DNA of 64,000 nucleotides from an uncultured Alphaproteobacteria bacterium (GCA_944390195.1 CALXOZ010000002.1:14380-78379); one strand, 5' to 3'; shown: positions 9,228 to 57,707, numbered from the stretch's first letter. Numbers and translations: made by a program. The notes: generated by a model from the sequence alone, not told the origin.

Positions 9228-10419
9228 AGGTACATCTCAAACGGTTTGATAACGCGATCCAAGACCCCCTGCATGGCGGAAAGGGTCATTCCGAAGTTTG
9301 TAACAGGGACATGATTACGCTGGCATTCATGAATTCTCCGTAAAGTTTCCAATCGTGACAGCATACACCCCCCACAGTGAATAACAAGTTTAAATTGATT
9401 AAGATTTTCAGGAAAGTCCGTTCCTGCCGACCATTCAAAAATAATATTCTTGTTCAGAACTTTTTTAATGACGGCGGGAATTTTTTTTCGTGCAATGTCA
9501 TCGTCTTGGACATGGTGAGAACAAGCTTCAGCAATCAAGACACGATCATTGTCCTTGAGAAGTTGCAATTGTTTCGCCCCATCGTAAAAAGATTTGAGAT
9601 CTCCTTTATAACGGGCGAACAAGGTTGAAAAAGTCGTTAAAGGGACGGATTGTGGAACAACGGTATCAACCTGTCGTATCAATTGAGAATCCGTAATGAC
9701 CAAAGACGGCGGGTTTTTGAGATTTTCTAAGATATTTAAAAAATCGGAATGATTCTGAACGACATACGCATAAGCGTGCGCATCCAAGATGTCTCTGATG
9801 ACCTGGACTTGAGGCAGGATCAATCGCCCTTTCGGCGCGGAAGAATCAATAGGAGCGATACAAACGACTGTTTGGTTTTCTTTTATCAGGTCTCGAACCA
9901 GATCCGGATGAGGTTTGAGATGCTTGGATAAGACGTTTTTGATTAAAGTTTTTAATCCGTCGATATTTTGGTGGTTTAAAGCGGAAACGCGAATGGACGG
10001 GAAAGACGGGGATTCAGATGGATTTAAGCTGTTTTTATCACTTTTATTAAAGACGACAATAAAGGGGATTTTTAAATCGTCGAACTTTTTGATTAAATCC
10101 AGTTCATGTGTTTGGATTCCCGTTTCGTCGACAACCAATAAAGCGATATCGACTTTGTTAAGGATTTTTTTTGTGGCGGCGATTCTCAAAGATCCGATTT
10201 CTGCAGTGTCATCTATGCCGGCGGTATCAAAGAAAGTAACCGGACCGACTGGGATTAATTCATAAATTTTTGAAACGGCGTCGGTTGTCGTTCCGGGAGT
10301 GTCGGAAACGATTGAAACCTGTTGATTGCACATAGCGTTTAACAAAGAAGATTTTCCGGCGTTTCTTCTGCCAAACAAGCCAATATTGATCCGTTCGCCA
10401 CGAGGTGCTGTCTGCATGA
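9224..10419 (-). CDS. hydF: [FeFe]-hydrogenase maturation GTPase HydF-like
   Basis: G1 'GRRNAGKSS', G3 'DTAG', G4 'NKSD'. The C-terminal 'CSHH-(about 45 aa)-HCGGC' matches the HydF FeS-binding motif CxHx44-53HCxxC. Start taken at the second ATG (MQTAPRG…) with an AAAGGA RBS; the ORF track extends to 10444. Confidence 0.75.
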
Positions 10420-10529
10420 TAAATCCTTTAAAAAAAAGAATCACTTTTCTCTTTCTTTATACCTTTTTTTAGCTTTTATCTGAAAAAATATTTTCAAATA
10501 AATTTTTTATTTTTCAGGTGTAGTTTAAT

Positions 10530-11465
10530 TTGATTAAAAATAAATATATAAAGTCTGTTTTTGCATATGGGGCAATATTTTGTTTTTTGACAGGAATGTC
10601 CGATTCCGTAATGGCGGGTGCTTTTACCGATCCGGCAGACAATGCCTATTCGTTGAAAAAAGTTTTCACCCGTCCTTATTTGCAAAATACTCCGATTCCA
10701 AAAGTGTGGCAGGTTGATGCATCTTCTCCAAATTTCAAAGGGGCTCTGCTGGATTCTCTAACACCGCAAACACAAACGGAATTGCAACTGGACTCTTTGT
10801 TACGCGAACTTGATGCTTTGGATCGTCAGAACGATTATCGGAATATGGCGGTTGTTTCACCTTTTTTTGATATGAAAGCCGTTACCCGTCTTTTAAATGA
10901 AATGGTTCCTGTCGTGGAACAGGTTCAAAGGGAAACGTTGTCCGATTTAAAAGAAGTGGAAAAACGGTCGGAAAGATATCAACAAGAAAGTTTGAAGACG
11001 GAAGAAACACAATTCAATCAGTCGTTGGTTGATTTGTCTTCTTTTTTCGCTTCTTTGAGTGAAACGGCTCGTATGGACGTGGAAATGGATTTTTTGGAAA
11101 AATCGCTTGAAGATACTTGTGAAACACAGATGCTTTTCGATTTGAACAATTCGTTTTTGTCCGAAAACATTTTAAATAAAGCCGAAAATATCCATTTGTC
11201 GGAAACTGAAGATGTGCAAATACGCAACCAGACAGAAGAAATTTTTTATTCGTTGTTGATTAACGATATGATGGATCTGTCAACGGGAATAGGGACTTTC
11301 GAACAAGATAGCTCCTTTTTTGCACCGGATGATAATAAAAATATTTCAAAATCCGCCTCTTTGCTTGACAGAACGAATAAAACTGATCAAATTCAAAATG
11401 ATGATCCTGCATCAAAAAAACAATCTTTATTTAAAAAGCTGGAAAAATTTTTAAAAAAGAAGTAA
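10530..11465 (+). CDS. hypothetical secreted acidic protein
   Basis: 311 aa. With the TTG start there is a signal peptide (KNKYIKSVFAYGAIFCFLTGMSDSVMA|GA). The mature part is acidic and low-complexity. Located 18 bp upstream of the TolC-like gene. Confidence 0.5.
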   Translation: MIKNKYIKSVFAYGAIFCFLTGMSDSVMAGAFTDPADNAYSLKKVFTRPYLQNTPIPKVWQVDASSPNFKGALLDSLTPQTQTELQLDSLLRELDALDRQNDYRNMAVVSPFFDMKAVTRLLNEMVPVVEQVQRETLSDLKEVEKRSERYQQESLKTEETQFNQSLVDLSSFFASLSETARMDVEMDFLEKSLEDTCETQMLFDLNNSFLSENILNKAENIHLSETEDVQIRNQTEEIFYSLLINDMMDLSTGIGTFEQDSSFFAPDDNKNISKSASLLDRTNKTDQIQNDDPASKKQSLFKKLEKFLKKK

Positions 11466-11482
11466 AAACTTAAGGACGTAAG

Positions 11483-13525
11483 ATGAAGAAAAAGTTGGAT
11501 ACCTTTTTAATGCAAAAGAAAATTTTGAAAAGAACGTCCTTTTTGACGGCGTCGGCAATAGCCTTATTCATAGGGGCTTGTACCGTAGAACCCGAACCGT
11601 TGAGCGATTGGGAGCGTGCCGTCCGTGTTGATCAGGATATTCAGGAAATGTTCCAAGATCAACGTTCTCAAAGGATCGTAGAACCGTTGACCTTATATGA
11701 TGCTATGGCAAGGGCTTTGAAGTATAACTTGAAAGCTCGATTGAAAATGATGCAAACGGCTTTGGCGACAAAACAATATGACAAAGTAACTTTGGATATG
11801 TTGCCACAAGTTTCTCTTGGCGCCGGTTATTCGGGCAGAAACAATTATGAAGCCGTCGTTTCAAAATCCATGCAAAACGGGCTTGTATCTCAAGATGCCG
11901 AAGCTTATAGCGCAAAAACGCACGGTGTCGCAAATGCTCAGATCAGTTGGAACATTTTGGATTTCGGCGTCAGCTATTATCAGGCAAAGCAAGACGCAAA
12001 CAACATCTTGATCGCCAAAGAACAAAGACGTAAACAAGTCCAGTCTTTGTTGCAGGAAGTACGGGCTGCTTATTGGCGGGCTCTGGCTGCTGAAAGGTTG
12101 TCCGGAAAAATCGATGATTTGATGGAAGAAGCGACATTCGTTCTGGAAAAATTACGTTCAACGGAAAACCAGACAAGCGGGGATTCAACTGTTTTGTTGA
12201 ATTATCAAATGGCGTTGATGGAAACAATGCGCGATTTGAGCGAAATGAAAAAAGAGTTGATGATCTCGCGTGAACAATTGGCCTCTTTGATGAATCTCAA
12301 ACCGGGAACACGCTACAGGTTGGTCGGACCGGAAAATGGTAATTTCGTGTTGCCGGAAATCAGATCCAGTCTGGATCGCTTGGAATGGCTCGCCTTGATG
12401 AACCGTCCGGAATTAAGAGAAGAAGATTATAAACTTCAAAACACTCGTATTGCTGCAAAAAAGGCTTTATTAAAATTATTGCCCGGTCTGAACCTTTCCA
12501 TATCGGCAAATTATGATTCCGATGACTTCCTCGCCAATAATTCATGGTTGGAAGCGGCGGCTATGTTAGGGTGGAATTTGTTAAATCCTGCTCAGATGCA
12601 ACGTACGCTGGCGTATGGCGAAGTCAAAGAAGCCGTCGATAATTTAAATCGGCAGGTCATTGCTATGACGGTTTTGACGCAAACGCATGTCGGATGGGGT
12701 AGATACCAAACAGCCAAAGAAACTTATCAATTAAGCGTCGAAATTGCCGATGTTGCCCGTAAGTTGGCAGAACAAGCGTCCGATAACGTAAAAACAGATG
12801 TTTTAGCTGAGGCGGAAAAAATATCCTCTGCCGCCAGAGCTCTGTTCGCCGAATTGCGTTCATCAATGAATTTCGCCGAATTGCAAGACGCGACAGGTTA
12901 TGTGTTTGTAACTTTGGGGTTGGATCCTTTACCGGAAAACTTCGCTTCCAGTGATATAAATTCAATTTCTTCAGCTTTGCAACGTGTCATGACGGCTTGG
13001 GATATGGGGCGTTTCACAAACGAAGATTATCCTCGTTTGCCACCTGTTCCAAGGCATAGACCGCCAGTATATATTGATGCGAAGTTCCCGGCTAAAAAGG
13101 TTACGGAAAATACACGCTTTATTGTAACAATAGATCCGAATGTCTTTGCAGAAGCCGATTTAGGGCAAGATGTCGTTTATACCGCAACTTTGAGAAATGG
13201 AGCAAAGTTGCCGTCTTGGTTGTTCTTTGATTCAAAAACGCTCACCTTGTCCGGTAGACCTCCTGCAAATTCGGAAGGAATATATGAAATAAAGATAATG
13301 GCTAAAAATAAAAAGAAAATGAGTGCCTATATCTTTATGACCATTCAGGTTCAACGCGGATACAAGACAATTCTGGATATGAGAGGGGCGGAACCCGATT
13401 CTATTGTGACAGTCATTCAACGTTGCGACGGATCCGAATTGTGTGAAGATTATCAAAATATCCGTCAAATTGATATGTTCCCGGAACCTGTAACGGTTTC
13501 TCCGTTACCAATGCCGAAAAAGTAA
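11483..13525 (+). CDS. TolC/NodT-family outer-membrane efflux lipoprotein with C-terminal cadherin-like (He_PIG/putative Ig) domain
   Basis: 680 aa. Lipobox FIGAC. Residues about 60-480 carry outer-membrane-factor repeats (LTLYDAMARALKYNL…, …LLPGLNLS…). The C-terminal about 200 aa contain 'VYTATLRNGAKLPSWLFFDSKTLTLSGRPPANSEGIYEIKIMAKN', which matches the He_PIG/dystroglycan-type cadherin-like consensus (PSWLxFDxxTxTLSGxP…GxYxIxI). Confidence 0.75.
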   Translation: MKKKLDTFLMQKKILKRTSFLTASAIALFIGACTVEPEPLSDWERAVRVDQDIQEMFQDQRSQRIVEPLTLYDAMARALKYNLKARLKMMQTALATKQYDKVTLDMLPQVSLGAGYSGRNNYEAVVSKSMQNGLVSQDAEAYSAKTHGVANAQISWNILDFGVSYYQAKQDANNILIAKEQRRKQVQSLLQEVRAAYWRALAAERLSGKIDDLMEEATFVLEKLRSTENQTSGDSTVLLNYQMALMETMRDLSEMKKELMISREQLASLMNLKPGTRYRLVGPENGNFVLPEIRSSLDRLEWLALMNRPELREEDYKLQNTRIAAKKALLKLLPGLNLSISANYDSDDFLANNSWLEAAAMLGWNLLNPAQMQRTLAYGEVKEAVDNLNRQVIAMTVLTQTHVGWGRYQTAKETYQLSVEIADVARKLAEQASDNVKTDVLAEAEKISSAARALFAELRSSMNFAELQDATGYVFVTLGLDPLPENFASSDINSISSALQRVMTAWDMGRFTNEDYPRLPPVPRHRPPVYIDAKFPAKKVTENTRFIVTIDPNVFAEADLGQDVVYTATLRNGAKLPSWLFFDSKTLTLSGRPPANSEGIYEIKIMAKNKKKMSAYIFMTIQVQRGYKTILDMRGAEPDSIVTVIQRCDGSELCEDYQNIRQIDMFPEPVTVSPLPMPKK

Positions 13526-13556
13526 TCTAAAAAAATTCTAAATTCATATATTTATA

Positions 13557-13590
13557 TCTTCTCCTGTAAAAAGCGGGAGAAGATTTTTTT
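13557..13590 (+). terminator. rho-independent terminator after the TolC-like gene
   Basis: tcttctcc-N11-ggagaaga stem followed by T7. Confidence 0.7.
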
Positions 13591-13603
13591 ATGAAAATTC
13601 ACT

Positions 13604-13788
13604 AATTCTAAAAAATATTGTGTATTTTGGGGTATCTCGATAACCTATAATAGATCTGTCTCAATCAATCGCTTCTTTTCGTTGAAAGGAAAACATTCCG
13701 CTTAATAATGTCAAGCCAGCTTGCCTTTCTATTGTGATAAAACCGAACCGATCTGTGTATAAACTCGTTTAAATTCCTTCCACAGCTT
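13604..13788. repeat. composite repeat copy 1 (unit A 106 bp directly abutting unit B 76 bp)
   Basis: A (aattctaaaaaatattgtgtattttggggtatctcgataacctataatagatctgtc…ccgcttaataat) is identical to 14568-14673. B (aagccagcttgcctttctattgtgataaaaccgaaccgatctgtgtataaactcgtttaaattccttccacagctt) is about 97% identical to 14826-14901. Confidence 0.9.
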
Positions 13789-14567
13789 TCAGATTTATTG
13801 TATATTCCCGCTTGAGGGGCGAAGGACATTTTTTTGATTCAAGTGTTTTCAGATTTATAAGTATATGAAATTCCGGTTGAGAAAGCGGTTTTCCATTTTT
13901 TTAAAGATAATGAAAATTAAACTTTCTTTGTTTTGATGCTTATAAAAAACTATTAATCTGCCAGTTTTTTTGAAATTCTTTTATTGTGAAAGCCTGTCAT
14001 ATGCCAAAATAAAAAATTTAAATTGAAATGCTGTAAACTTGGTTTATGACTTTTAGTGCTTCAGATCCTGAGGACTGAAATTCTTACAGGATATTGGTAT
14101 TAAATCACTATTTGAAATATTTTTGATTCTATATCCCTATATCAAAATCACATGGATATAACATGATAATAAAATATTTCACACAATAAATTGTATGTAA
14201 AAAATTTTAAAGACAATTTGTTTGAATGAAGCTTTATTCAAAAATATAAATCTTTTTAAGAAAGTTATTAATAAAAGAAAACATTCCTTATAAAACGTTA
14301 GTTTCTGTTTTGTGTATAACTTCCCATATTGCCATCTAGACTTGAATAGCGTTTTATTTGGCTGGATGCGTAATTTGTTACTTATAACCGTAAACAGAAA
14401 AATGTCTGATGTAGTATGTTATTCCCAACTGTTTTATATATATAAGGTATCTGGCGATGATTTATGTTTTTGTCTGCCGTATCTTTAAATACCATTGCTT
14501 TAAAACCGTTTATTGCGATATTTAAAATTCATGTTCTATTCATAGATCATCAAACTTATATTTCAGA

Positions 14568-14901
14568 AATTCTAAAAAATATTGTGTATTTTGGGGTATC
14601 TCGATAACCTATAATAGATCTGTCTCAATCAATCGCTTCTTTTCGTTGAAAGGAAAACATTCCGCTTAATAATCAACTTTAGTATGTCGTTATTTGCATC
14701 GCTGAATTTGATCGCAAGCTTTTTCCATAAAAGCGTTCTAAGACAGCGCCGACGTTCTTCTTGCAAAGACGGCGATGTATTTGGACGATCTGTCTTGAGT
14801 CTTCCATGAAAAGGTTAAGCCCGCTTGCCTTTCTATTGTGATAAAACCGAACCGATCTGTGTATAAACTCGTTTAAATTCCTTCCACAGCTTCCAGAAAG
14901 C
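14568..14901. repeat. composite repeat copy 2 (unit A and unit B split by a 152-bp unique insert)
   Basis: Same A and B units as 13604-13788, with 14674-14825 inserted between them. Both copies lie inside a 2.3-kb gene-free AT-rich block. Confidence 0.9.
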
Positions 14902-15475
14902 GTGCATAAGATATCTGCTGACCTGTTTTTATCGACGATGCGTGCTATCGCATAAGCGCTAATAACTTCGTGCAAGTTTTATACCGTACAATCATAGCCA
15001 TCTGAAAGCCATCTTTCTTTACTTTTCGGAAAATAACCTGATGATATTTCTATCAATGCTAGATTAAATTGCAGAAATCTTCGGTCTCACCGGTTGCTTA
15101 GGTCTTAAAGAAGTGTTACACACAATAGTGTGGGAGTTTTTTAGGGGGAGGGAGATGGCTATTCTTTCAATTTTCTCTAAAGTTCTTTTTTGTTTGAAGA
15201 TGGGCAATCTCAAAATGATCTTTATTATTGGTTACTTCTAACAAAACGACGGATTTTTTTGTCTGAAATGCGGATTAAAATTGTAATAAGATTTTTTCTT
15301 TGTTTCTCGGGATAACAGTGTCAGCATTATATAAACTGTAAGCTGTCATCTTTTTATAATCTTCTTTTTTAACTTCGATGTGCTGTAAAAGATGACGATC
15401 ATTGAGATGATTTTCTGAATATTTTCTCTGTTTTTTACCGTTTTTCGCCATAATATAGAGCAAACACAGCAAACA

Positions 15476-15510
15476 CATCATTCATTATAATTACTCTTGA
15501 CGTTAATGTC
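15476..15510. repeat. about 35-bp repeat D (second copy at 42866-42900)
   Basis: atcattcattataattactctt(tt)gacNtNaatgt is present in two distant gene-free regions. Confidence 0.6.
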
Positions 15511-15554: not shown

Positions 15555-15665
15555 GTGCGTAATTGCGAATGCGTTTAGCAACGATTTTTACGATTTTCAA
15601 TGATGTTTCCGTTAATAAAATTGCACGTTCGATATATCAGCTAAATGTCCTAAGCAGTAGGAATC
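15555..15665 (-). pseudogene. decayed fragment of the GGDEF-domain gene (paralogous to 20534-20645)
   Basis: About 110 bp alignable to the intact gene at 20534-20645 in the same orientation. Minus-strand translation gives RDS-YCLGHLADISNVQF* versus parent RDSDYLGRLADIEFAILL, with in-frame stops. Confidence 0.75.
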
Positions 15666-15693
15666 TCTTGACTATAAACTTGCCGGAATCACA

Positions 15694-15747
15694 TGCATAA
15701 AGAAGTCATGAATTTTTAATAAAAACGTATCATCTATAAATTTCCGA
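15694..15747. repeat. 54-bp perfect direct repeat C, copy 1 (flanks 15823-16521 gene)
   Basis: tgcataaagaagtcatgaatttttaataaaaacgtatcatctataaatttccga is identical to 16705-16758. Confidence 0.9.
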
Positions 15748-15822
15748 CAGGCGCGAAAGTTTCCTTATAAAAAAACAAGACCAATAATAAAATTGGTCTT
15801 GATAATAATCGATATAAATAAC

Positions 15823-16521
15823 TTAACGTCCTTTTGCAGCATTCATTGCTGCTATGTTTATAGGATTTAAAGTTTTGTTGTTCTTTTTTTCTCTTTGATC
15901 AACCGTTTTAAAGGAGCTCGGTGTAACAATTAAAAGTTCCTCTTTGACAGATTTCGGATTTTGCTTATACATTTCATATTCCTGCGCTGAAAGAGGCATG
16001 GCAATATAATAAGTCAACTTAGTTCCCGCACGTTCAGGGAAATAACCGTTGCGTTTATCCATAGCTGAATGAACATTTTGATGAATATCTCTGTTAGGCG
16101 TATTCGGAAGGGGCATCATACAACGCCAATCATGGATTGATGATAACACTTCGTTTCCGAATTGAACGGGACCCTTTTTAAAAGAACCACTGATAGCGCG
16201 CGGAAACAAATGGTGATAATTATAACCATTCGGAGTTTTTCCGTTGGCGACAAATTCAAAAATCTGTTTATCTGTCATTCCTGCTTGACGTAAACGTGAT
16301 ATTCCTTCTTTATTTTCCGATCCGTCAGGATTATAAACAGTATCTTTGAGCAACTGCGCTCTAACCTGTTTATATTCTTCATAAACCTTTTTGTTTTCTT
16401 CCGGAGATATACGAATTCCTTTTACAGGAACCCATTTGAAAACGAACTCTGGGCTATTGATGTTGTTTTGAAAAGAGGGCTTTTTTCCTTTGCTTTTGCG
16501 TTTTGTATGTATATATGTCAT
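15823..16521 (-). CDS. hypothetical protein with HH-hydrophobic-P / N…H motif (possible HNH-fold, AHH-like nuclease)
   Basis: 232 aa with a basic N-terminus. 'NGYNYHHLFPR…GNEVLSSIHDW' resembles the [A/L/S]HH-hh-P…N…H arrangement of HNH-superfamily toxin nucleases. No other homology recognised. Flanked by repeat C. Confidence 0.45.
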   Translation of the reverse strand: MTYIHTKRKSKGKKPSFQNNINSPEFVFKWVPVKGIRISPEENKKVYEEYKQVRAQLLKDTVYNPDGSENKEGISRLRQAGMTDKQIFEFVANGKTPNGYNYHHLFPRAISGSFKKGPVQFGNEVLSSIHDWRCMMPLPNTPNRDIHQNVHSAMDKRNGYFPERAGTKLTYYIAMPLSAQEYEMYKQNPKSVKEELLIVTPSSFKTVDQREKKNNKTLNPINIAAMNAAKGR

Positions 16522-16704
16522 GAATTAATTCCTTCTATTAAAAGGCATTATGACTGAAAAAAATTTTTTTGTCCAGTTTTTTGTGAAATAAAAGAAAAAT
16601 ATATGGACAAAATTTTTCAATTTGCAGTGATTATCTCATTAAAGAGAAATTAAAAAAAAAGATGAACAAATTTTATGTTTTTTAATTAAATAGAAAATTA
16701 CAAC

Positions 16705-16758
16705 TGCATAAAGAAGTCATGAATTTTTAATAAAAACGTATCATCTATAAATTTCCGA
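16705..16758. repeat. 54-bp perfect direct repeat C, copy 2
   Basis: Identical to 15694-15747. Confidence 0.9.
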
Positions 16759-17295
16759 GATATCCCGAGGTATGTGATTTTTTAAGGACATTGTAGATAC
16801 GATTGTTTCACAAGATGTCGTTTTAAAAATTCTTCTAGAACATATCAAAACAACTTGTAAAAATAACACAAGACAATCTTATCGTCCTGTTGTTGAAAAT
16901 TTTTCTTCTTGTTATTAAAAATTGGAGATATTCCATAAACATATGAGTTATGATCTTGATCAATTCAAGCTGAAATTCACTGAAGGGCTGAATGTTTATT
17001 TCCCCAACTACGGAGCAGATTGTTTTTCATAAGAAAAGTTTGTTGGGATACATCTTTTTTTATTTATATTGTATTTGTTTATTTATATACGGGAACAATC
17101 TTTGATTTAAGCTGTTGTGGTCTAGGTTCAGTTTATAATTAAAGCAATAGAAATTTGCGCTATCGTCTGAAAAAAGGATTCTGAAAAAAGGATATTGTGC
17201 CGATAAGTTAAAAAGCGCAAAAAGTTGTGAATGCGTAAAATAAAAGACTCCGGTTGAAACGGTCGGTTAAAAATTTTATGAAGGAAAAACTTTTT

Positions 17296-17323
17296 CAGGC
17301 GTGGCCGGTAAAGGCGACGCCTG
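17296..17323 (-). terminator. putative terminator hairpin downstream of pntB
   Basis: caggcgt-N14-acgcctg stem about 35 nt past the pntB stop, followed on the minus strand by gaaaaagttttt. Confidence 0.4.
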
Positions 17324-17358
17324 TTGCATAAATGTTTTTCAATATGGAATTTGTTTTT

Positions 17359-20347: not shown

Positions 20348-21487
20348 TTATGCCGGAGATTCTGCTACGGCAATATTGTTTTGTCGTTCTTTGGTTGAAC
20401 GCAAGGCATTAAAAGCGCGTAATAAAAGCGAATCGATTGTTTCATCCGTATCTGTTCGTGTCGCGATGCTTATACTTGTGGTAACGGTGATTTTTATATT
20501 TCCGACCATCAGATTTGATTTCATGACTTCATCGCGAATGCGCTCAGCAACGATTTTTGCGCCTTCCAATGGTGTTTCCGGTAATAAGATCGCAAATTCG
20601 ATATCGGCCAAACGTCCTAAGTAATCGGAATCCCTGATGGAATTTTGACAAGCTGTTACGGCGACTTTTATTGCTTCATCGCCGAATGCCGACCCGTGCT
20701 CGTTATTTAAAGCTTCGAAACGGTCAATGGTCATTAAAAGAACGGACAAGTTCCGTTTATAACGTCTTGCCCGTTTCATTTCTTTTGCTCCGTCTTCCAA
20801 GAACTGACGTCTGTTCAATACGCCGGTAACAGGATCGATTACAGTCATTTGACGTAATTCTTCTTCCAATTGTTTGCGCGGTGTTATATCGAACCCGACA
20901 GAACGGATTTCAGCCGGACGTCCATCGGGCCCGTAAATAATCCGGTTTGTCCATGAAATCCAAACTCTTCTGCCGTTTTTGCAAATATTTTCATTTTCAT
21001 TATCGACATACAGGCGCGGGTTGTTTTTAATGCGTTCAATCAAATTTGTTAAAGTTTGTCCGCGGGAATCTTTAGTTGGAACGATGGTACCGATAATATT
21101 TTTACCGATGAGTTCACTTTTATCGTTATAACCGTAAAATTCGCAGGCATAATCATTAACAGACAGGAGTATACCGTCTTTATCCATACAGATAAATAAA
21201 CTTTTCGTACCGGGGGAAGAGTATGGATCGAACTGGCGATGGCGTTCTTTTTTCATATCTTCCAATTCCTTTTGTACGGAAATTAAAGTATTTTGTAATT
21301 CAACGACTTTGTTTTTCAAGGCAATTTTTTTTGTTCTGCAAGATAAAAAGCGATAAAACAAATATATCAATGCAAAACTTAACACGAAACACAAAACAAC
21401 GGGCAATGATATAAACCCTGATGACTGAGATATTTTTCCTTCGGGCAGAAGAATTGTTTGAAAGTTGAAATAGGCTGAAAACGGCAT
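20348..21487 (-). CDS. membrane-anchored PAS–GGDEF-domain protein with degenerate active site (ADIEF instead of GG[DE]EF)
   Basis: 379 aa. N-terminal TM, PAS-like region, and a GGDEF fold recognisable by 'IDRFEALNNEHGSAFGDEAIK' and 'RYKRNLSVLLMTIDRF'. The signature reads 'GRLADIEFAILLPE'. Confidence 0.75.
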   Translation of the reverse strand: MPFSAYFNFQTILLPEGKISQSSGFISLPVVLCFVLSFALIYLFYRFLSCRTKKIALKNKVVELQNTLISVQKELEDMKKERHRQFDPYSSPGTKSLFICMDKDGILLSVNDYACEFYGYNDKSELIGKNIIGTIVPTKDSRGQTLTNLIERIKNNPRLYVDNENENICKNGRRVWISWTNRIIYGPDGRPAEIRSVGFDITPRKQLEEELRQMTVIDPVTGVLNRRQFLEDGAKEMKRARRYKRNLSVLLMTIDRFEALNNEHGSAFGDEAIKVAVTACQNSIRDSDYLGRLADIEFAILLPETPLEGAKIVAERIRDEVMKSNLMVGNIKITVTTSISIATRTDTDETIDSLLLRAFNALRSTKERQNNIAVAESPA

Positions 21488-29929: not shown

Positions 29930-30222
29930 ACGTTTAGCGCTTTCTTGCACTTCTTTGATGGTTTCCGTACGTCTTACAAAATTTTAACAAGATCGAAACC
30001 GCTTCCGATGATTAGTTATGCGAATTTGTTGCAAGCTTTCCAACAACATTTAATCGTGAAAACGCTTTGTGTCGGATTATCCTGTTTTGTGCGATACGGC
30101 TCAAAGTCCGGACGTTTTGTCCTAAATCTGTAAAGCGGTTACCCCGTATTACGCAAGATGTGTCGCAATCGTTTAGGAAGCTATGGATAAGTACACTAAA
30201 ATCACCGCTCGTCGATATCATT
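29930..30222 (+). pseudogene. decayed internal fragment of the pyruvate:ferredoxin oxidoreductase gene (paralogous to nifJ 33520-33812)
   Basis: About 290 bp collinear with nifJ. Translation gives FLHFFDGFRTSYKILTRSKP… versus parent FLHFFDGFRTSHEINKIETVSDDQLREFVEG…; other segments match nearly base for base (gatcgaaacc, gaaaacgctttg). Contains indels and a stop. Confidence 0.85.
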
Positions 30223-33020: not shown

Positions 33021-36578
<3,558 letters not shown>

Positions 36579-54799: not shown

Positions 54800-54950
54800 C
54801 ACAAAAAACGACCATAACGGACTTCAATACGCCTTGCATAAGGAATTTATTTGAACATTGATGACAAAACGAAGTTCAATGCGACATTTGACGAATTGAT
54901 AGCTACAAATACCAAGTTCCAATTGAAAAACGTCAGTGTTCTTATCTAAA
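54800..54950 (+). pseudogene. decayed inverted fragment of the ADP-forming acetyl-CoA synthetase gene
   Basis: Translation ALHKEF/GIYLNIDDKTKFNATFDELIATNTKFQLKNVSVLI* versus parent ALHKTEMKGIYLNIDDEAKFNAAFDELTATIAKFQLKNASVLIQ (parent encoded on minus at about 55980-56110). The fragment is on the plus strand and has an indel and a stop. Confidence 0.85.
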
Positions 54951-55625: not shown

Positions 55626-57707
55626 TTATTTTAATAACATTTTAAAATCGACGACGACAGCACGGTCTTTTGTTACCAGAACTGGATTTCCGTCAATGGA
55701 TTTTATTTCCGGAATTTCCAGAACCAATTGTTGAACCTTCTTTAACGTTTCAGCCAAAGGTCCGACCGCTTTAGGTTCTTCTCCTCTAACACCATTCAAA
55801 ATCGTTCCGATTTTTGTTTCTTTGATCATTGCGTCAAAATCATCAGCAGGAAGAATACGCATTGTCGTATCCCGCATGACTTCCGTATAGATGCCGCCCG
55901 TTCCAAAGATCATGACACGACCGAAATTTTTATCAGAATTAACACCGATAATCGTTTCAGAAGCCTTGACGATCATTTCTTGGATAAGGACACTGGCGTT
56001 TTTCAATTGGAACTTGGCAATTGTCGCCGTCAATTCATCAAACGCCGCATTGAACTTCGCTTCGTCATCGATGTTCAAATAAATTCCCTTCATTTCCGTT
56101 TTATGCAAAGCGTCAGGAGCGGAAAGCTTCAACACGACAGGAGAGGGGAAAAGCTTTTTACAAAATGCCAATGCTTCATTTTTATCCGTAAAGTTACCGC
56201 ATTTCGGATAGTCGATTCCGTAATGATCCATGATTTTGTTCATTGTTGTTTGCGGTAAGGAAGCTAAACCGTCATTTACGGCTTTTTTAATTTCCTCTTT
56301 AATTTCGGACGGGACGTCATGACATTCGACTTTTACATCAGGCATTCCTCTGAACGCCATTTGGGCTTTCATCAAACCGAGCAAGCGGATACAATCTGTC
56401 GGATAATCATATGCAAGGATATTTTGAGCTTTTAACATATTAACAGCTTCTCTAACGCGTTCTCCGCCGATAAAGGAGCAGAAAATGTTAATATCTTTAA
56501 ATTGAGGAGCCAGTTTGATAATAGCTTCAGCCGTTTCTTTGGGTTCTGTCGACATTTGAGGCGTCAATAGAACGATGATGTTTTTATATTCACCAGATTC
56601 GCATAAAACGCGCAAAGCGTTTTCATAACGATCCGCTTTTGCGTCTCCGACGACATCAATCGGGTTTCCGACGGAAGCTTCCGGCGTTAAAACGGCGCGT
56701 AATTTTTCGATTGTTTTTTCACTTGGGCGAGCCAAATCCAGATGAGCATCTTCGCATAAATCAGAAGACAAAACACCGACGCCACCTGCATTTGTCAATA
56801 TTCCAACAGAACCGGAAAAATCGGTATGGTTGACATGTTGCAACAATTCCAAAGCTCCGAACAATTCGCGAGTTGTATAAACTTGAATGGCGCCGCTACG
56901 TTGCAAAGCAATTTCCAAAACGCGGTAATTGGGAGCCAGAGACCCTGTATGTGACAAGCTGGCCGCTTGAGCTTTGCTGGATTTTCCGGGTTCCATGATA
57001 ACACATGGTTTCGTTTTGCTGACTTCTTTCAAGATACGCAAGAACTCTTGCCCTTTTTTCAGTCCTTCCAGATAGAAAACGAAAGCTTTTGTGTTCGGAT
57101 CGTGTTGAATGGCTTCCAACAAAGAAGCTTCGTTCAAATCCGCTTTATTCCCGATGGAGATGAAATGAGAAAATCCGATTCCCTTTTCTTCAGCCCAGTC
57201 GAGAATGGCGCTGCAATAGGCTCCCGACTGTGAAATGAAAGCGACATTTCCTTGTAAGGGGAAACAGGGAGCAAAACTTGCATTTAATTTATCGAAAGTG
57301 GAAATATGTCCCAAGCAGTTCGGACCCAACAAATTAATATTGTTATCCAAACATTTTTTTGCGATTTTCAATTCCAGTTCTTTATTTCCAGCTTCTCCGA
57401 ACCCTGCAGTGATGATACTGATATTTTTAGCTTTGTTAACAATTGCATCATCGACGGCGGCTTCGCAAAAACGAGCGGGAACCAATAAGACGACAAGGTC
57501 TACGGGATTGGGAATATCGCGTACGGAAGCAAAACATTTTTTACCTTTGAGTTCTTGTCCGGCCAACTTCGGATTGACACCGTAAAGATCTCCTTGGAAA
57601 CCGGCTTCAATCAGATTTTTAAAAACAACGGCTCCCAATTTTGATTCGTCAGCGGAAACACCGACAACCGCAATGGAATGCGGATTGAAAAATGTACTTA
57701 AAGACAT
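55626..57707 (-). CDS. acetate--CoA ligase (ADP-forming), fused alpha-beta subunits (Acd / NDP-forming acyl-CoA synthetase)
   Basis: About 694 aa. N-terminal CoA-binding 'IAVVGVSADESKLG', succinyl-CoA-synthetase-like flavodoxin and ligase-CoA domains, and a C-terminal ATP-grasp part. Start chosen at the second ATG after AAGGGA. Confidence 0.88.
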   Translation of the reverse strand: MSLSTFFNPHSIAVVGVSADESKLGAVVFKNLIEAGFQGDLYGVNPKLAGQELKGKKCFASVRDIPNPVDLVVLLVPARFCEAAVDDAIVNKAKNISIITAGFGEAGNKELELKIAKKCLDNNINLLGPNCLGHISTFDKLNASFAPCFPLQGNVAFISQSGAYCSAILDWAEEKGIGFSHFISIGNKADLNEASLLEAIQHDPNTKAFVFYLEGLKKGQEFLRILKEVSKTKPCVIMEPGKSSKAQAASLSHTGSLAPNYRVLEIALQRSGAIQVYTTRELFGALELLQHVNHTDFSGSVGILTNAGGVGVLSSDLCEDAHLDLARPSEKTIEKLRAVLTPEASVGNPIDVVGDAKADRYENALRVLCESGEYKNIIVLLTPQMSTEPKETAEAIIKLAPQFKDINIFCSFIGGERVREAVNMLKAQNILAYDYPTDCIRLLGLMKAQMAFRGMPDVKVECHDVPSEIKEEIKKAVNDGLASLPQTTMNKIMDHYGIDYPKCGNFTDKNEALAFCKKLFPSPVVLKLSAPDALHKTEMKGIYLNIDDEAKFNAAFDELTATIAKFQLKNASVLIQEMIVKASETIIGVNSDKNFGRVMIFGTGGIYTEVMRDTTMRILPADDFDAMIKETKIGTILNGVRGEEPKAVGPLAETLKKVQQLVLEIPEIKSIDGNPVLVTKDRAVVVDFKMLLK

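Follow-up and report, generated by a model that had tools for sequence, protein, structure and literature searches.

Perfect 54-bp direct repeats around an apparently old gene with a nuclease-like core in an uncultured Alphaproteobacteria bacterium

The question raised by the locus

Perfect direct repeats on both sides of a single gene raise the question whether the gene is a mobile cassette or a resident of the chromosome beside which some DNA has been duplicated. Here we discuss this question for positions 15,694 to 16,758 of a 64,000-nucleotide stretch from an uncultured Alphaproteobacteria bacterium (GCA_944390195.1, CALXOZ010000002.1:14380-78379), where two identical 54-bp sequences (54-mers) enclose a lone minus-strand gene for a protein of 232 amino acids (aa), termed HH232 below; the whole stretch, at its full length of 64 kb, is called the window. 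On the whole, the comparison of the window with other strains and with related species favours, at a probability of roughly 0.6, an old HH232 gene with a nuclease-like core, to which a young local duplication has added a scar in degraded spacer DNA, the 54-mers being without function. The feature is thus most likely a genuine but unremarkable duplication scar that surrounds a nuclease-like family of modest interest. This is a negative outcome, in that the repeat pair around a lone gene mimicked a mobile toxin cassette, for which the comparison substitutes a fixed ancestral gene and a young duplication.

The repeats and the unit that they enclose

The repeats, the gene and its control signals are located as follows.

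15694-15747, no strand: copy A of the 54-bp direct repeat, starting about 19 bp past the T-tail of the HH232 terminator and 75 bp from the HH232 stop codon
15776-15801, minus strand: intrinsic terminator of HH232, with TTTTTTT after a stem of 10 bp
15823-16521, minus strand: HH232, the 232-aa gene, the only long open reading frame (ORF) between the repeats, with a probable AHH/DUF2380-like core
16535-16530, minus strand: GAAGGA ribosome-binding site of HH232
16547-16575, minus strand: sigma-70-type promoter of HH232, TGGACA-17-CATAAT, matching an element upstream of the gene in 9 related species
16569-16610, minus strand: candidate operator, inverted half-sites TTGTCCA (16610-16604) and TGGACAA (16575-16569)
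16705-16758, no strand: copy B of the 54-bp direct repeat, upstream of HH232 at 183 bp from its ATG and at about 95 bp from the conserved promoter/operator region

The 54-mer, TGCATAAAGAAGTCATGAATTTTTAATAAAAACGTATCATCTATAAATTTCCGA, is found in the window in two plus-strand copies with 0 mismatches, in the same orientation and at a start-to-start distance of 1011 bp. The preliminary description of perfect 54-bp repeats around a lone minus-strand gene of 232 aa is confirmed by this, with gaps of 75 bp and 183 bp. The identity breaks off sharply at both ends, except for a ragged 'ACA' on one side, and a pair of this kind was matched 0 times in 100 shuffles. A third copy is not found in the 64 kb, either with 3 mismatches allowed or by low-stringency blastn, where the best match after the two copies is 72% identical over 44 bp (E 0.03); a sequence scattered over many sites, as was also considered at the outset, is therefore not what is seen within the 64 kb, which hold two copies only. 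What the repeats enclose is one complete transcription unit, from promoter to terminator, and on the minus strand the order runs from the pntB stop (17359) through 600 bp of AT-rich anonymous DNA, copy B, the promoter, the ribosome-binding site, HH232, the terminator and copy A to a further spacer.

Contigs of the same species were fetched in three ways, by the exact protein (L001-L006), by the neighbouring gene for an outer-membrane protein (OMP; L029-L035) and by pntA1 (L037-L044). Both perfect copies are present in all 10 of the contigs that span the locus (L001, L002, L004, L005, L006, L029, L030, L031, L037 and L038), which stem from different samples and assemblers and some of which were fetched through neighbouring genes and not through HH232; the repeats are therefore not an assembly artefact. 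Among these strains the repeat spacing is 1009-1011, the shifts of 1-2 bp being due to small indels, including the gain or loss of one base at 16652. A deleted form of the repeat-bounded unit, with the junction ...GGAATCACA + 54-mer + GATATCCCGAGG..., or an amplified one, with the tandem or circular junction ...AAATTACAAC + 54-mer + CAGGCGCGAAAG..., is not present among the 10 locus-spanning contigs. In addition, both copies are invariant in every strain contig that covers them. As the neighbouring spacers have about 15 variable sites in 783 bp, which by our own estimate predicts only about 2 in the 108 bp of repeat, the finding of zero variants there is unremarkable and not significant.

HH232 at its ancestral locus

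The age of the gene relative to the repeats can be read from its relatives. A scan of one genome per GTDB species gave 22 loci encoding HH232 relatives, all of which belong to uncultured Alphaproteobacteria of human gut, rumen or horse faeces. About 12 of the 22 species representatives have the gene order of the window, namely the GGDEF gene, pntA1, pntA2, pntB, HH232 and the convergent gene for the 680-aa OMP. The identity to the relatives is 58-72% for HH232, 67-72% for PntA1 and 79-85% for PntB, all being lower in more distant relatives, so that the divergence of HH232 tracks that of PntA1 and PntB, as vertical descent predicts. The spacer between pntB and the gene measures about 140 bp in the syntenic relatives against 837 bp in the window, and the one between the gene and the OMP gene usually about 100 bp against about 2.3 kb. 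No similarity of the window spacers, the 54-mer included, to any of the 22 related loci is detectable, and none of these loci has flanking repeats of 21 bp or more, the longest, of 20 bp in L024, being formed by repeated terminators between tandem paralogs. Since the gene stands at the same locus in relatives that lack the repeats, HH232 is older than the repeats, which are part of DNA new to this species. HH232 itself appears, from these alignments, to be an old, vertically inherited gene with a fixed place on the chromosome in one clade of Alphaproteobacteria from gut and rumen.

The control signals of the gene point in the same direction. The regions upstream of HH232 in ten species align on one promoter, TGGACA/TAGACA-17-CATAAT/CATACT, and a comparison of 260-bp upstream regions from L007-L022 and L027 shows the half-site pair TTTGTC[CT]A ... 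T[AG]GACAAA in at least 16 of the 22 species, whatever the upstream neighbour. The half-sites are spaced by 45-49 bp in the relatives and by 35 bp in the window, with the right half overlapping the -35 box. They make a candidate operator of some regulator, and HH232 may thus carry signs of regulation. Both promoter and half-sites lie between the two 54-mers and outside either copy.

These results bear directly on the view of a small cassette, mobile or excisable, with a nuclease gene on it, for which the repeats would be att-like ends or a long target duplication. Such a cassette would suit the fact that perfect direct repeats enclose exactly one full transcription unit; the spacer region demonstrably receives small mobile elements, and toxin-type nuclease genes are often mobile (PMC8546572). 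It does not suit a gene that about 12 related species have at the same locus with no repeats around it, that has diverged along with its neighbours, and whose promoter and operator are orthologous to those of the relatives. Searches with Pfam, NCBIfam and PHROG find no recombinase-like, integrase or transposase ORF in or beside the repeat-bounded unit, the flanks holding only short broken ORFs; blastn of the spacers against plasmids and phages gives zero matches, as does the 54-mer in the JGI metagenomes and the viral contigs of IMG/VR; and the site is filled, with the same structure, in all ten locus-spanning strains, including those sampled through flanking genes. We regard the cassette as largely refuted and its probability as very low, and neither form of it that the preliminary description had offered, an excisable cassette or a target duplication left by an integrated element, is supported. 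One contig was tried as an excision product lacking HH232 and rejected: L034 (ERZ16268078 scaffold_11997) matches the window at about 99% identity over 4.9 kb (10341-15293), a segment with the 311-aa gene, the OMP gene and spacer; beyond it, neither side is related to the window, and the break falls at 15293 and not at a repeat. Its flanks are also very AT-rich and include an aminotransferase gene absent from the window, and a chimeric scaffold or a rearranged strain is a possible explanation of L034.

Several further observations concern the locus in relatives and its neighbours. In a metagenome-assembled genome from buffalo rumen (JAFZYY010000001.1; L024:2738-6735), the interval from pntB to the OMP gene contains four tandem HH232 paralogs, which share 56-63% identity with the protein of the window and all retain the invariant His set and the C-terminal ...AA(K/R)xGR tail. 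The HH232 gene can therefore expand by tandem duplication. In three relatives, L019, L022 and L027, a GGDEF gene is directly upstream of HH232, without pntAB in between. The convergent neighbour in the window (11483-13525, plus strand) encodes a TolC/OEP-like OMP of 680 aa, which has a He_PIG Ig-like domain. A gene for a 311-aa protein without a Pfam domain comes before it, and this pair is conserved beside HH232 in about 12 species. For the PntB of the window, no exact-sequence record was found.

The expanded spacers and the origin of the repeats

The DNA that is new in this species contains the following features.

13605-13792, no strand: 188-bp insertion resembling a miniature inverted-repeat transposable element (MITE), in the window's strain only and in the expanded spacer (element repeat 13598-13793)
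14562-14897, no strand: 336-bp longer copy of the same small non-coding element, present in all strains
15562-15668, minus strand: frameshifted GGDEF-domain pseudogene fragment, 80% identical to 20531-20632
16759-17358, no strand: species-specific spacer from pntB to copy B, where relatives have about 140 bp in all between pntB and the gene

The GGDEF fragment adjoins copy A, and its counterpart at 20531-20632 lies within the intact 379-aa PAS-GGDEF gene (20348-21487) upstream of pntA. The 188-bp copy corresponds to the 336-bp one with an internal deletion, and all other contigs that cover its position (L002, L029-L035) have a clean empty site, showing that the element is a recent insertion in the window's strain. 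The spacers have a G+C content of 22-34% against 40-46% in the genes. Two more fragment copies are seen in intergenic spacers elsewhere in the window, namely 29942-30221 against 33525-33803 (82-93% identical, direct, from inside a 1190-aa gene) and 54842-54949 against 55980-56087 (87% identical, inverted, from a 698-aa CoA-ligase-like gene). The genome seems to accumulate gene fragments in its spacers, and the new spacer DNA around HH232 looks like non-coding debris made of the GGDEF fragment, MITE-like elements and anonymous AT-rich DNA.

In a neighbourhood of this kind, the 54-mer might itself belong to a low-copy dispersed repeat family, like a repetitive extragenic palindromic (REP) element or a MITE end, two members of which flank HH232 by chance. 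A different small mobile element is indeed repeated in the same spacer, one of its insertions being strain-specific, and the scan covered 64 kb of the genome. We find this quite unlikely, as the 64 kb contain two copies even at low stringency and the metagenome and viral collections none, terminal inverted repeats or a predicted structure are not found in the 54-mer, and the copies share one orientation and 100% identity, while identity is 75-98% among the window's other repeats.

For an old gene with a young duplication scar, the course of events that we favour would be as follows. Two short ancestral spacers would have been filled with non-coding debris in this one species, and the 54-mers would have come to flank the ancestral promoter-gene-terminator unit as direct repeats, each at an inner edge of this new DNA. 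Tandem and short segmental duplication scars occur in bacterial intergenic DNA, and the most likely origin here would be a tandem duplication of the unit of about 1 kb, after which one copy would have been lost except for 54 bp; alternatively, the pair would go back to a short templated copy. Remnants of a second copy of HH232 are not found in the spacers by tblastn. An identity of 54 bp suffices for occasional RecA-dependent recombination, and the repeats could, as a side effect, serve the deletion or re-amplification of HH232.

Some points weigh against the duplication scar around a nuclease-like gene, and we collect them here. None of this spacer DNA is preserved in an outgroup, which puts a reconstruction of the duplication route out of reach. 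Both copies stand at the inner borders of the new DNA, a geometry that is neat for an accident. The copy count of the 54-mer covers 64 kb, and a low-copy dispersed element may be involved. The invariance of the repeats, though not significant, could hint at constraint or gene conversion. On the side of the protein, discussed below, no curated threshold of a hidden Markov model (HMM) is reached, Foldseek gives no significant match, only 38 columns align and the nuclease activity is putative; and an AHH-type nuclease without an immunity gene is unusual.

The 54-mer as a regulatory element and the 68-aa ORF

If the repeats were kept for a purpose, a regulatory one would come to mind. The preliminary description had named a promoter duplication among its possibilities, and this is not borne out: the conserved promoter (16575-16547) is outside the 54-mer, and none of the 17 promoter-like sites of the region falls in either copy. 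No palindrome is found in the 54-mer, its RNA folds worse than most shuffled sequences (z = +1.5 on both strands), and Rfam and tRNA scans of the region give nothing relevant, with no Rfam match at the 54-mer. The 54-mer was also tried as a continuation of the adjacent GGDEF fragment and rejected, the local alignment score of 7 being below the shuffle mean of 8.4. There is thus no sign, in these scans, that the 54-mer has a function of its own.

A second possible recipient of regulation, and in the preliminary description a possible partner or immunity protein, is the following ORF.

15275-15481, minus strand: 68-aa ORF, probably no gene, in the species-specific spacer

The strongest promoter-like site of the region ends 3 bp before the ATG of this ORF, and copy A lies 212 bp upstream of its start. 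Its strain variants have 58, 65, 67 and 68 aa and include a 9-bp indel; no family match is found in Pfam, NCBIfam, PHROGs, PADLOC and PDB sequences, and no counterpart in the loci of the relatives. Being species-specific and variable in length, it is no conserved gene for a partner or an immunity protein, and this part of the preliminary description falls.

Taken together, the view that the repeats are a duplicated cis-regulatory element, such as a site for a regulator or nucleoid protein, a UP-like or enhancer element or an insulator, whose identity is kept by selection or gene conversion, is one that we consider rather unlikely. The copies are at similar distances upstream of two minus-strand ORFs (183 bp for HH232 and 212 bp for the 68-aa ORF), neither varies in the strain contigs covering them, and the conserved inverted half-sites do suggest that HH232 is regulated. 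However, the missing SNPs (single-nucleotide polymorphisms) are within expectation, the downstream ORF to be served is not a credible gene, and the element is absent from all relatives, which conserve a different promoter and operator; the scans for promoter-like sites, palindromes, RNA folding and Rfam families speak against it as well.

The HH232 family and its nuclease-like core

The homologs of HH232 form 46 clusters; those with a name are all 'hypothetical protein' from the same Alphaproteobacteria group, and none has a Pfam domain. Direct searches with HH232 against Pfam, NCBIfam, PHROGs, PADLOC and PDB sequences find nothing above threshold, so the HMM search against nuclease profiles, by which the preliminary description meant its nuclease guess to be checked, yields no Pfam model at threshold. 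An exhaustive HMM profile search of 1.84 billion representatives recovers the family only, with no modular relatives. Outside the family the profile matches one sequence only, P0049 (3237 aa, 21 stretches), which is tandemly repeated and resembles plant NLRs; this match was judged spurious. The invariant residues of the family are N101, Y102, H103, H104, P107, R108, H130, D131, W132, R133, H147, H151, R157, N158 and G159.

The AlphaFold model of HH232 is confident (pLDDT 86.8, pTM 0.78), with both tails disordered. As modelled, the HH pair would be at the end of the strand 100-104, followed by a hairpin (119-126), and H147 and H151 would be on the helix 146-158. Foldseek finds no significant match of the model in PDB and BFVD, the only coherent weak fold match in PDB being Rhs2-CT (TM-score 0.48 on the target, probability 0.54, E about 0.9).

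Although the window's HH232 does not match Pfam AHH (PF14412) or DUF2380 (PF09533) at E <= 1, sub-threshold matches exist in the family, with AHH in 1 of 38 members (E 0.0074) and with DUF2380 in 3 of 38 members and the consensus (13.5 bits against a cut-off of 26.3). We therefore compared profiles. For DUF2380, pMF1.20 was taken from EU137666 and 32 relatives were collected, and 26 sequences (pMF1.20 and 25 others) were aligned. By hhalign, the HH232 family matches DUF2380/SitA6 with a probability of 90.5% (E 1.3e-6, score 49.3) over 38 columns, with YHHLFPRA..F..G..IHDW..DIHxNVH aligned to RHHIFPQA..F..G..VHxW..AxVHARIH, and H103, H104, F106, P107, H130, H147 and H151 fall on invariant DUF2380 columns. 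As controls, the reversed profile reaches 0.2% (score 14.1) and the best of 60 column shuffles 3.2% (score 23.6). The catalytic core of HH232 is very probably homologous to the AHH/DUF2380 nucleases, and HH232 is a probable divergent stand-alone AHH-like family and a putative His-Me-finger nuclease. An unannotated family of 46 clusters may in this way be linked to the AHH/DUF2380 nuclease core. Outside the core, HH232 has no relation to DUF2380, with its N-terminal strand-helix domain, its C-terminal domain, a basic N-terminal tail and a conserved C-terminal ...AAKGR tail.

Toxin or cellular enzyme

It is of interest to discuss whether such a core makes HH232 a toxin. Neighbour clustering over the 22 loci reveals no conserved adjacent partner or immunity-like gene, the neighbours in most of the syntenic loci being the convergent OMP gene, about 100 bp downstream, and, upstream, pntB. 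A delivery module is likewise absent, as no member has a Pfam domain and no hydrophobic N-terminal stretch is seen, the N-terminus of HH232 being a tail that is basic and disordered (MTYIHTKRKSKGKK...). There is no support for a toxin role, since no immunity-like neighbour and no delivery domain were found and the gene looks vertically inherited. Of the AHH/HNH-type toxin nuclease guessed in the preliminary description, the catalytic core thus stands, by the hhalign probability of 90.5%, and the toxin role does not.

Changes among strains are clustered in HH232, with 10 SNPs in 46 bp at 15901-15946 in L031 and 9 changes in 40 bp at 16327-16366 in L029-L031, and these patches are mostly synonymous. 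Such clusters indicate recombination tracts imported from a divergent allele, in a pattern that fits recombination under purifying selection.

A secreted or delivered toxin could still be imagined, with the basic N- and C-terminal tails as a secretion signal and the immunity factor encoded elsewhere or needless. Its core is homologous to toxin nucleases, the gene has expanded to four in tandem in one rumen species, the extreme termini are conserved around disordered linkers, and the strains show mosaic recombination tracts. Set against these, the missing partner gene over 22 loci, the missing Pfam delivery domain in every member, the basic N-terminus without a hydrophobic stretch and the lack of modular relatives in the exhaustive search make a delivered toxin unlikely; moreover, HH232 keeps 58-72% identity and a conserved position, where polymorphic toxins are typically variable and patchy. 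A stand-alone AHH-like nuclease with a lineage-specific cellular role would, on the sequences compared here, rank above a delivered toxin.

What is unusual is to find a toxin-type domain in a chromosomal gene that is conserved and stands alone, lacks an immunity gene, and has a conserved promoter of its own and a candidate operator. One may go further and suppose that HH232 founds a new functional class of the AHH type, namely a regulated core-genome enzyme without immunity under the TTTGTCCA/TGGACAAA operator, with the repeats as a recombinational switch for its loss or amplification. We hold this proposal to be doubtful; if it were true, HH232 might take part in stress-induced processing of DNA or RNA, in a self-directed or a defence role.

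Comparison with known systems

Compared with tandem and segmental duplication scars in bacterial intergenic DNA, the locus is alike in its identical direct repeats about 1 kb apart and in bounding a unit that could be amplified or deleted. It is unlike them in that only 54 bp of the presumed second copy are left and that the 10 strains include no amplified or deleted variant.

The closest protein relatives are the DUF2380/TIGR02269/SitA6 lipoprotein toxins of Myxococcales (PF09533), which share with HH232 the (R/Y)HH(I/L)FP(Q/R)A ... (I/V)H(D/E)W ... (I/V)HxxφH core and a length of about 230 aa. Among them, pMF1.20 of plasmid pMF1 cuts DNA in vitro (PMC6091211), and the SitA6 toxins have been described as AHH nucleases (PMC8546572, PMC12077181). 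Unlike these toxins, HH232 has no lipoprotein signal peptide, no escort region and no adjacent immunity gene equivalent to pMF1.19/SitI6; its core has two insertions, of 8 and 6 residues, and its N- and C-terminal domains are unrelated. HH232 is usually single-copy and at a fixed position, whereas the SitA6 loci come in multiple copies and are often carried by mobile DNA.

With the AHH family at large (PF14412; HNH/EndoVII, His-Me finger), HH232 shares an 'xHH' at the end of a strand and downstream His ligands on a helix. The spacing from HH to HxxxH is longer in HH232 (43 residues), and the polymorphic-toxin architecture and the immunity partner are absent from it.

Finally, the atypical HNH DNase Rhs2-CT (bioRxiv 10.1101/2025.10.28.685041), which comes from Serratia marcescens (PDB 8cm0 / 9t38), differs from HH232 in being the C-terminal tip of a T6SS (type VI secretion system) Rhs protein, with an immunity protein and EF-Tu as a cofactor. 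It is the best coherent fold match of HH232, and the two are alike in the His-His pair on a beta-strand, which in Rhs2-CT is required for DNase activity (bioRxiv 10.1101/2025.10.28.685041).

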